The notes under the pieces were generated by a model. It saw nothing but the letters and a program-made list of their open reading frames with translations. It was not told the DNA's origin and ran no database searches. A stretch of 64,000 bases of DNA from Octopus vulgaris. Lineage: Eukaryota. This document shows, in pieces, positions 3,336 through 12,408 of the stretch. Within the stretch, counting starts at the first letter, position 1. Each line of letters opens with the position of its first letter. The translations under genes and the position numbers were made by a program. Location: assembly GCA_951406725.2 (NCBI GenBank), contig OX597827.1, positions 30,938,001 to 31,002,000 of the forward strand, read 5' to 3'.

Positions 3336-3416
3336 CAGCTAGCAGGCCTTTGCTACTCTAGACTGATGATGGGCAAGACCCAGAAACATGCATGTCTCTA
3401 GATGCAGGCCTAGCTG
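3336..3416 (+). ncRNA. Type I (minimal) hammerhead ribozyme, canonical core
   Basis: Stem I tctaga 3357-3362/3397-3402; core CTGATGA 3363-3369; stem II tggg/ccca with loop caaga; GAAA 3383-3386; palindromic stem III ACATGCATGT; GTC cleavage triplet ending at 3396. Stem I extends through aggcct/aggcct and cagctag/ctagctg. Confidence 0.88.
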
Positions 3417-3729
3417 TTGGGAGTGTTTGTCTCCCCTTCGTAAATATATAAGGACACAGGAAATGTGTCACGGCCGACAGGAAGAGTCGATGCTTCCTAG
3501 GGCTAAATAGCGGTGGTGTAATTCTGTTACGGGACTGTCACGTTAAATTGACAGTATACAACCACTCTCTATATATATATTCTTTCAATTTCTGTTTCGC
3601 TTTCAATCTATCTTTCATTTTATCTCTATAAAACTAATATTTAAAAATTCTTTTCATTTGTTTATTTTCCTGTAATTTAAGCTAACGACTGAATTAGAAA
3701 TATAATCGTAATTAGTTTAGAATTATATA

Positions 3730-8829: not shown

Positions 8830-10402
8830 ATCATCATAATCATCATCATCATCATCATTTAGCATCCGCTTTCCATGCTAGCATGGGTTGGACGGACACG
8901 AACGGATGGTGCTTTTTACGTACCACGGGCACGAGGCCATTCGGGGTGGCGCTGGCAACGGCCACATTCGGATGGTTCTTTTACGTGCCACCGGTACTGG
9001 TAACTTAGCTGCAATTTCCATTGATCAATTTCGATTCTGATTCTGATTCTCACTTGCCTCAACAGGTCTTCACAAGTAGAGTTTTGTGTCCCAAGAAGGG
9101 AAGGTATGCATAAGTGGGCTGGCTACATCCCATGTAGAAGGCCACGGGTTATGGTCTCACTTGTCCTGCCGGGTCTTCTCGCGCACAGCATACTTCCAGA
9201 GGTCTTGGTCTCTAGCCATTTCCTCAGTGAGACCTAAAGTTCGAAGGTCGTGCTTCACCAACTCGTTCCAGGTTTTCCTGGGTCTGCCTCTTCCACAGGT
9301 TCCCTCAACCGCTAGGGTGTGGTACTTTTTCACACAACTGTCTTCATCCATTCTCGCCACATGCCCGTACCAGCACAGTTGTCTCTCTTGCACACCACAT
9401 CTGATGCTTCTTAGGTCCAGCTTTTCTCTCAAGGTACGTACACTCTGTCGAGTATGAGTACTGACATTACACATCCATCGGAGCATACTGGCTTCATTTC
9501 TTGCGAGCTTACGCATATCCTCAGCAGTCACGTCCCATGTTTCACTGCCATGTAGCATGGCTGTTCGTACAGACGCGTCATACAGTCTGCCTTTTACTCT
9601 GAGCGAGAGGCCTTTTGTCACCAGCAGAGATAAGAGCTCTCTGAACTTTGCCCAAGCTATTCTTACTCTAGCAGTTACACTTTCAGCACACCTGCCCCCG
9701 CTGCTGACGGAAGCTATCAACTATTTCTAGTTTTTCTCCCTGGAAAGTGACAGAAGTTGGTCTCAGAGCATTTTCAGTGTTTATTGTTCCTGAGCATCTG
9801 CCACATACAAAAACCATCTTCATAGTTAGCCTTCCTTTGACATTGCTGCACCTCTTATGTGTCCATAGCTTACACTTGGTGCATCTTATAGAGTTTCTAC
9901 CTACACCTTTTCTACAGATCGAGCAGGGCCATCTACCTGAAGGCGTTTGTGATTTGTCTACCTTCCTACTGATTATGACTTTGGTTTTAGCTAGATTGAC
10001 TCTAAGGCCCTTCGATTCTAAACCTTGCTTCTACACCTGAAACTTCTCCTCCAGTTCTGATAGTGACTCAGCAATTAGAGCGAGGTCATCAGCATAGAGG
10101 AGCTCCCAAGGGCATCCTGTCTTGAATTCCTCCGTTATTGCCTGGAGGACTATGATAAATAGGAGGGGGCTGAGGACTGAGCCTTGGTGGACCCCTACCT
10201 CTACTCAGAATTCTTCACTGTACTCGTTGCCAACCCTCACCTTACTAGCAGCGTCCCTGTACATGGCTCGCACAGCTCTCACTAACCATTCATCTATCCC
10301 TAGTTTCCTCATTGACCACCATATGAGGGATCGGGGGACCCTGTCGAAGGCTTTCTCCATGTCAACAAAAGCCAGGTACAGGGGCTTATCTTTGGCTAGG
10401 TA
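8830..10402 (-). mobile_element. 5'-truncated RTE-clade LINE with (GAT)n tail
   Basis: Minus-strand ORFs with [41 protein letters not shown]. The 3' tail reads (cat)n ttagcatccgctttccatgctagcatgggttgg on the plus strand. Confidence 0.92.
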
Positions 10403-10516
10403 ATATATATTTATATATACATATATATATATATTTAATTGCAGCATGTAAGGTGTTTGTAAGCCTTGTAAGAAACACACAAAAGCTGTTCGATTCACTT
10501 CAACATTTAAGTTTAA

Positions 10517-10567
10517 TTTGTCAAAATATTTTCGGCGCTTTAAGACAGCGACCTGTTCACTGACAAA
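10517..10567 (-). ncRNA. Type I minimal hammerhead-like ribozyme with G3/C8 swapped core
   Basis: Minus strand reads tttgtca-GTGAACA-ggtcgc(tgtcttaaa)gcgcc-GAA-AatatT-T-tgacaaa: 7-bp stem I, stem II with one bulge, palindromic aatatt stem III and a UH triplet. The core GUGAACA differs from CUGANGA only at the paired positions 3 and 8. Confidence 0.68.
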
Positions 10568-10763
10568 AATCCGTGCTGCATATATTTATATATACATATA
10601 TATATATCTATTTATATATACATATATATATATTTATATATACATATATATATATATATATATTTATATATACATATATGTATATTTATATATACATATA
10701 TATATATATTTATATATACATATATATATATTTATATACATATATACAGATTATATATATATA

Positions 10764-12408
10764 TACAGATTGAGCAGGGCCATCTACCTGAAGGGATTTG
10801 TAGTTTTCCTGCCTTCCTACATATTAGGACTTTGGTTTTAGCTAGGTTGATTCTAAGGCCCTTCGATTCTAATCCTTGTTTCCACACTCCAGGCAATAAC
10901 GGAGGAATTCAAGACAGGATGCCCCTGGGAGCTCCTCTATGCTGATGATCTTGCTCTAATTGCTGAGTCACTATCAGAACTAGAGGCGAAGTTTCAAGTG
11001 TGGAAACAAGGATTAGAATCGAAGGGCCTTAGAATCAACCTAGCTAAAACCAAAGTCCTAATATGTAGGAAGGCAGGAAAACTACAAATCCCTTCAGGTA
11101 GATGGCCCTGCTCAATCTGTAGTAGAGGCGTAGGTAGAAACTCTATAAGATGTACCCAGTGTAAGCTATGGACACATAAGAGGTACAGTAATATCAAAGG
11201 GAGGCTATCTGGGAAGATAGTTTTTGTATGTGGCAGATGCTCAGGTGCTATAAACACTGAAAATGCTCTGAGACCAATTTCCGCCACATTCCAGGGAGAA
11301 AAACTAGAAGTAGTTGATAGCTTCTGTTACCTAGGTGACCAAGTCAGTAGCGGAGGTGGGTGTGCTAAAAGTGTAGCTGTTAGAATAAGAATAGCTTGAG
11401 CAAAGTTCAGAGAGCTCTTACCTTTGCTGGTGGCAAAGGGCTTCTCGCTCAGAGTAAAAGGTAGACTGTATGACACTTGTGTACGAACAGCCATGCTACA
11501 TGGCAGTGAAACATGGGCTGTAACTGCTGAGGACATGCATAAGTTCACAAGGAATGAAGCCAGTATGATCCGATGGATGTGTAATGTCAGTGTGCATACT
11601 CGACAGAGTGTAAGTACCTTGAGAGAAAAGTTGGACCTAAGAAGCATCAGATGTGGTGTGCAAGAGAGACAACTGTGCTGGTATGGTCATGTGGCAAGAA
11701 TGGACAAGGACAGCTGTGTGAAAAAGTGCCACACCCTAGCGGTTGAGGGAACCTGTGTAAGAGGTAGACCCAGGAAGACCTCGGATGAAGTGATGTAGCA
11801 TGACCTTCGAACTTTAGACCTCACCAAGGAAATGGCTAGTGACCGAGACCTTTGGAAATATGCCGTGCGTGAGAAGTCCTGGCAAGCCAAATGAAACCAT
11901 AATCTCATGGCCTATGCCAGAGGCGTAACCAGCCCACTTATGTGTAACCTTTTCCTTCTTTGGACACTAAAACTTTACTTGCAAAGACCTGTGGAGGCAA
12001 GTGAAATCAAATCAATCGAAATCAAATTCGATGACTGGCGTCCATGCTAGCAGGGTGCAAAGAGCACCATACGAGTGAGATCGTTGACAGAGCGGCTAAC
12101 CGGCTTCCGTGCTAGTGGCACTTAAAGGGCACCATTCGAGCGTGATTGTTACCAGCGTTGCCTTACTGGCACTTGTGCCCGTGCTAGTAGGGTGCCAAAA
12201 GCACCATCCGAACGTGATCATTGCCAGAGCAGCCAACTGGCTTCCGTGCCAGTGGCACATAAAAGGGTACCATTCGAGTGTGATCTGTAGAAAACCATGC
12301 CAAGTCAGACTGAGGCCTGGTGCAGCCTTCATGCTAGCCCATGCAAACCGCCCAACCCATGCCAGCATGGACAACGGACATTAAATGATGATGATGATGA
12401 TGATGATA
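10764..12408 (+). mobile_element. 5'-truncated RTE-clade LINE copy with an inverted 125-bp duplication at its 5' end
   Basis: Plus-strand LLYADDL, PHD-like Cys cluster, [14 protein letters not shown], with stop codons. (GAT)n tail at about 12385-12408. 10764-10888 is the reverse complement of 10997-11121. Confidence 0.9.

Follow-up and report, generated by a model that had tools for sequence, protein, structure and literature searches.

The window, a stretch of 64,000 nucleotides from the Octopus vulgaris genome (contig OX597827.1, positions 30,938,001 to 31,002,000), contains at 10437..10581 on the minus strand a solo fragment of 145 nt that corresponds to positions +3 to +147 of a Penelope-like retrotransposon, here designated family A. 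Position +1 in the family numbering is the A of AGATGC. The fragment begins approximately at the putative transcription start of the family, ends at the first of the two 3′ end sites that are common among its copies, and carries a hammerhead motif about 55 nt upstream of the position of the start codon. This position, 10465..10467 on the minus strand, was assigned from a tandem junction (L103) and from homology to the N terminus of a sister family; it is ATG in the family and AAG in the window copy, which has no start codon. TA-rich microsatellite is present on the 3′ side of the element, the target site (10403..10434), and on its 5′ side (10580..10765), as the preliminary description of the stretch had stated. 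The (TA)n array with the fragment is located between fragments of an unrelated LINE. These fragments, at 9157-10400 on the minus and at 10765-11798 on the plus strand, belong to one LINE family and oppose each other across the microsatellite. They contain reverse transcriptase (RT) and a weak match to PHD, and the right one seemingly opens with a short 5′ inversion.

The complete minimal type I hammerhead motif occupies 10517..10567 of the minus strand. In the motif parse, stem I comprises 7 bp (10567-10561 paired with 10523-10517) and is followed by the core strand GUGAACA (10554..10560), in which G3 (10560) and C8 (10555) replace C3 and G8, by one extra G (10553), and by the 5-bp stem II (10552-10548 with 10538-10534). 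One U-C mismatch in this stem is common to the window copy and 14/230 copies. GAA (10533-10531), stem III as the palindromic 6-nt AAUAUU (10530-10525), and U17 (10524) complete the motif, and hammerhead numbering places the predicted cleavage site after U17, at 10523..10524 on the minus strand and at family position +60. G3/C8 is the sole departure from the conserved core positions: the bases U4 G5 A6, A9, and G12 A13 A14 of type I in the minimal form of Penelope-like elements (PLEs) are present, as are the pair A15.1-U16.1 and a non-G at position 17, and the canonical identities C3 and G8 are replaced family-wide by G3 and C8. Stems I and II combined with a short self-complementary stem III are those of a type I hammerhead. 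This parse agrees with the preliminary description, which had folded the minus strand into a minimal hammerhead with the same core, the same length of stem I, and the same palindromic stem III.

The hammerhead motif in the window exceeds chance expectation. In 200 dinucleotide shuffles of the window, three matches with a stem I of at least 7 bp and a stem II of at least 5 bp were obtained, and one match with a stem I of at least 6 bp, a stem II of at least 4 bp, and a palindromic stem III; folding of the 56-nt motif gave z = -2.32. A 10-nt palindrome, AAAAUAUUUU, could lengthen stem III so that it invades the core; such a pairing is inactive and counts against cleavage. Rfam at gathering scores returned no match in the window, the swapped-core motif included, and also missed a canonical hammerhead at 3336-3418 on the plus strand. 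This second hammerhead is of type I, with CUGAUGA, a GUC triplet, a palindromic 10-nt stem III, and a long interrupted stem I, and is situated about 340 nt behind an RT/zf-RVT open reading frame (ORF) of a non-LTR retrotransposon. It had 1,052 first-pass candidates. In 13 of 14 other loci, the alignment is confined to the interval between about 3330, where the search query had its edge, and about 3520-3580; the remaining locus (L327) also matches the upstream ORF colinearly, at 92%.

The stretch with the swapped core had 757 first-pass candidates as a repeat, and a 20-letter core pattern of family A gave at least 6,023 exact matches (control, 0). Young copies have open ORFs, the longest with 1,025 amino acids. 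The protein of family A is encoded by a single ORF with RT and a GIY-YIG domain that scored above the Pfam cut-off and is located at residues 915-1005, so that the endonuclease (EN) is C-terminal. The linker ahead of GIY-YIG, CQSNCAVC, agrees with the CX2-5CxxC of Neptune/Nematis. In 12 of the 12 fetched ORF-bearing loci, the hammerhead-containing unit follows the ORF in the same orientation, an inverted second copy being present at many of these loci, and many family A copies adjoin an inverted, truncated partner. At the tandem junction, the order is hammerhead, ATG, and ORF, with an N terminus homologous to that of the sister family. The hammerhead motif is therefore a non-coding part of the 5′ untranslated region (UTR), at the junction of pseudo-LTR and ORF of the full element. 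A coding constraint behind the swap was consequently rejected: the apparent open frame across the unit is not the ORF of the element, the true start of which lies downstream.

Pseudo-LTR, partial tandems, inverted 5′-truncated copies, and an optional tail, the hallmarks of PLEs, are all present. By the features given in the available text of PMC8557442, family A is a C-terminal EN+ PLE of the Neptune/Nematis type, the clade being set by features and not by a tree. An identity as a Naiad, which would have explained the reported lack of hammerheads in Naiads, was discarded because GIY-YIG is C-terminal and not N-terminal. The preliminary description had overlooked that the motif belongs to the pseudo-LTR of a Penelope-like retrotransposon, as its hammerhead, and that the "unit" is an insertion fragment. 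Other PLE-like RT and GIY-YIG ORFs adjoin family A copies at L069:3837-5369 (plus strand) and L064:429-2061, which suggests shared (TA)n targets.

G3 and C8 occurred together in 93 of 100 copies listed of the 6,023 matches. Among the aligned copies, from which loci chosen for variant cores were excluded, G3 was present in 215/218 and C8 in 213/220. G3-C8 was the state of every family A subfamily sampled, G3 was also found in older, decayed ORF-bearing copies, and none of the 40 rows listed out of 47 from one sequencing run each of four organism labels had a change at position 3 or 8, a weak indication of the same state. The preliminary description had proposed fixation of G3 and C8 across the genomic copies as a check for selection. 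Both bases are nearly fixed, but this is uninformative on selection because position 7, which is unconstrained in the ribozyme, varies equally little (variants per 100 listed copies, three at position 7, three at position 3, and four at position 8) and because copies decay passively from a master. Two family A members with C3-G8 were present among nine pattern matches (control, 4). An older canonical C3-G8 subfamily within family A was rejected as their origin: the inverted partner of one of them (L127) has G3-C8, the nearest relatives have G3, and 0/15 C3 rows had G8 among 100 listed of 304 non-G3 matches. For these reasons, the two copies are best read as sporadic changes.

Related families are more informative about the origin of the swap. 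Sister family B, with 54% amino acid identity to family A, possesses C3-G8 at the same position and a C at position 9. It is very young, with open ORFs of 1,312 amino acids and hammerheads with C instead of A9 at L113:8030-8084 (minus strand) and L205:3024-3078 (plus strand), and its copies carry either C17 or U17. A protein labelled Octopus vulgaris by its source is 100% identical to family B. Family C, an older B-like family, yielded 23 distinct cores on parsing (27 rows including 4 duplicates, from 39 segments), and 21 of these read CUGAAGA. A metagenome scan for relatives produced two loci only, one of which reached a hammerhead; this relative (L190; 41%) has C3-G8 and a different palindromic stem III behind its ORF. 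Since families B and C and the metagenomic relative retain C3-G8 at the same position, the G3-C8 swap is derived in family A.

When seven representatives from families A, B, and C were compared, pairing was retained in 76 of 77 cells, and both partners had changed in 5 of the 11 pairs. One of these is the 3-8 pair, which is G-C in four and C-G in three representatives of these three families only. Three pairs of stem I entered the count, the structure was derived from the same sequences, and the metagenome row was left out because it was misaligned. The covariation comes from three related families and not from independent events. Within family A, variation at the subfamily level affected 1/42 structured versus 13/71 other non-coding positions (p = 0.016), counting six loop-II sites that represent perhaps few events, and compared with all other positions (20/158) the value was p = 0.084. 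These few related events point to selection on the hammerhead fold with the 3-8 pair, and judged by its sequences the fold "looks selected." The covariation of positions 3 and 8 across families supports the reading of the preliminary description, a minimal hammerhead of type I in which the G3-C8 pair is compensated. The claim that the compensated pair indicates selection is likewise supported, by the comparison of families and subfamilies and not by fixation among copies, the reason proposed for it.

Which RNA served as the template of the copies was deduced from their ends. The end map comprised 102 copies in 80 of 81 places, grouped from 100 listed of 3,841 matches; it covers the first part of one chromosome and younger subfamilies only, with a numbering good to about 2 nt. 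The 3′ ends formed two sharp clusters, at +146-153 in 40 copies and at +204-211 in 54, with 8 elsewhere, and most of them abut (TA)n. The 5′ ends were at +1 to +4 in 44 copies, upstream of +1 in 18, at +6 to +52 in 35, and at +58 to +63 in 5. A sharp pile-up of 5′ ends at the predicted cut was not found in this map, 5 of the 102 copies ending near the site. Among 100 listed of 327 matches, about 30 began at +57 to +61 and 42 at +62 to +73, as counted by eye with about one-quarter set aside as internal indels; the excess at +57 to +61 is at most mild and is confounded by a T run, by microhomology in stem I, and by RT pausing. Family A copies derive mainly from uncut RNA, and the end maps thereby extend to another PLE clade, at the level of the genome, the support for RT starting internally on uncut RNA. 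In two copies (G000 C2:15126200 and C4:108337189), the two strands of stem I remain but the hammerhead interior that separates them is deleted, which would be the expected product of RT jumping across the folded hairpin. At L015:1333-1641, a head-to-tail pair at 166-nt spacing is accompanied by an inverted third copy.

Of the 56 copies that stop at +1 (all loci, with a few duplicates included), 34 have a non-templated G immediately before it, the template base being C or T, and the extra G is also present in 22 of 38 such copies without an inverted junction. An extra G at the 5′ end is regarded as cap-derived, and the sequence at +1 resembles an initiator. The bases just before +1/+3 resemble a splice acceptor as well, with a branch-point-like motif, a pyrimidine tract, and AG (L103:4200-4222, plus strand), and for this reason +1 stays a putative transcription start. 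Some PLE families possess an intron in the 5′ UTR; for family A, no spliced joint was seen in contigs of one stretch that holds only 25 upstream bases.

The interpretation that we consider likely is that the window contains an end-fragment of a PLE, without start codon, with a hammerhead motif from the 5′ UTR and the family-wide G3-C8 pair, for which cleavage is predicted to be slow and to occur probably only as a dimer or bound to protein. Family A RNA would start at +1 and carry a cap. The protein of the element would nick (TA)n DNA, and reverse transcription would start internally near +149 or +209; a start in the 5′ repeat would yield solo copies of 145 to 210 nt such as the window copy, and a start in the 3′ repeat the ORF-bearing copies. 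The RNA may be able to cut after +60, slowly and via an intermolecular stem III. Because the predicted cut at +60 would strip the cap from the ORF RNA, and that at the 3′ repeat would detach the RT start sites from the ORF, transposition would use uncut RNA, and a slow ribozyme could be tolerated. The swap would have arisen once, in the master lineage of family A, as a compensated double change that was kept together with the fold. Internal RT starts at +149/+209 and a capped +1 are proposed by analogy to the PLE of Anolis, in which two internal RT start sites define a tail and insertion proceeds mainly from uncut RNA (PMC11167929). Cleavage by the Anolis hammerhead requires protein and is partly restored in a C3G/G8C double mutant (PMC11167929). 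Partial restoration of hammerhead cleavage by C3G/G8C is also described in the available text of PMC8495972, and that of PMC4209133 describes poor cleavage by minimal PLE hammerheads, and cleavage as dimers.

Alternatively, the motif may be the catalytically dead descendant of a hammerhead, kept for another job such as internal promoter, protein binding, or RT positioning, with a neutral or hitch-hiking swap. We regard this as unlikely, albeit as the strongest competing explanation. It agrees with the derivation of the copies from uncut RNA and with the Anolis data, in which insertion in vitro did not require cleavage and RNA-seq revealed no ends at the cut (PMC11167929). The motif is also positioned just 3′ of the putative start, the expected place of internal promoter elements, and family B altered a core base, too (C9). 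A promoter role at the DNA level, however, predicts neither the 3-8 swap nor the compensatory changes in stems I to III nor the re-spelled palindrome, and it was only the 3-8 partners that changed, both keeping Watson-Crick pairing, while the other core bases are unchanged.

Somewhat more doubtful again is G3-C8 as an evolved brake, a slower, protein-gated ribozyme selected as a feedback off-switch, an idea that arises because the predicted cut falls between cap and ORF and upstream of both RT start sites. The switch to U17, from the C17 of family C and older family B, would in that case avoid a G3-C17 mispair. U17 may have this effect; the mispair is mentioned as "data not shown" in the available text of PMC3884650. 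The argument is weak because U17 is common in PLE hammerheads and present in young family B.

A self-contained non-autonomous element of 141 nt, retrozyme- or MITE-like, with terminal inverted repeats and a small circular RNA, is very improbable. The prevalence of short solo copies, the complementarity of the family ends over 6 bp, and the one head-to-tail pair would fit, but both ends of the unit match landmarks of the autonomous element, and 54 of the 102 copies continue for 60 nt beyond the arm. In the terminal inverted arm, the seventh base, T in 14/186 copies and C in 170, is a C>T change at a CpG and thus decay, and folding of the full 141 nt was indistinguishable from that of shuffles (z = -0.32). 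The extra 5′ G points to linear capped templates. A non-LTR retrozyme is, in the available text of bioRxiv 10.64898/2026.07.22.740005, a head-to-tail array with at least two hammerhead units, whereas the window locus holds a solo copy with one hammerhead. The "self-closing 141-nt unit" of the preliminary description had to be abandoned on these grounds: the copy is a 145-nt insertion fragment, and the family sequence continues both ways, with about 60 nt more 3′ and about 1 kb more 5′. That the motif resembles a hammerhead by chance, or is a canonical one decayed in this copy alone, has a negligible probability and is refuted. A loose descriptor gives 0.355 matches per shuffled window and Rfam finds none, but G3 and C8 are present in nearly all aligned copies, and there is positional homology with the canonical hammerheads of three relatives.

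Family A can be compared to known systems. According to the available text of PMC4209133 (Cervera and de la Pena 2014), PLE hammerheads share with family A the position in the pseudo-LTR, an extra nucleotide between 9 and 10.1, G10.1-C11.1, a short palindromic stem III that needs dimers, mostly solo or inverted copies, and a common U17. The core differs, G3-C8 in family A versus U3-A8 as the natural covariant in that text, and the extra nucleotide is G versus H in its consensus; G3 occurs in 0/56 representative motifs of its Fig. S3, the descriptors of which could not detect one. In the available part of Perreault et al. (2011; PMC3088659), natural covariation of positions 3 and 8 is also described, but as U3-A8 only. 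PAc, the Poseidon element of Anolis (PMC11167929), has in common with family A that the "tail" is defined by two internal RT start sites close to the beginning of the ORF, that targets are AT-rich, and that uncut RNA is the template, and its engineered C3G/G8C is the natural state of family A. Family A belongs to a different PLE clade, of the Zn-linker type, its hammerhead lies wholly in the 5′ UTR whereas that of PAc overlaps the start codon, and its tail has about 60 nt compared to 30-40 in PAc. Neptune/Nematis in the available text of Craig et al. (2021; PMC8557442) and family A share the order of RT, a CX3CxxC linker, and a GIY-YIG domain that has CCHH residues; both also target microsatellites and form partial tandems as well as inverted 5′-truncated copies. 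In the RT, motifs A and B are separated, by eye, by a long insert, a feature that the same text ties mainly to Naiad/Chlamys; the two C-terminal EN+ proteins P0121 and P0122 both have it.

The available text of PMC6155905, PMC11014351, and PMC10085705 contained nothing relevant. A natural G3-C8 pair was not found in the literature searched, which contained engineered mutants only. Lunse, Weinberg, and Breaker (2017), reportedly on PLE hammerhead variants, was outside this scope and may contain it. The G3-C8 core is a genuine variant, derived and present throughout the family, of a known ribozyme, here with putative activity, in a known kind of retroelement. Neither a new ribozyme class nor a new element class is defined, and hammerheads in Penelope-like elements were already known.

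The meaning of the variant is that a successful family with young, intact-ORF copies carries what in the laboratory was a "rescue" allele, indicating that evolution keeps the 3-8 pair and not the identity of its bases. Searches with a fixed CUGANGA miss whole families with thousands of copies. The canonical sister families in the same genome are ready controls on whether the cleavage rate matters. If the swap were indeed a brake, the octopus genome would hold a natural series, G3-C8, C3-G8, and C9, for probing the purpose of hammerheads in Penelope-like elements.
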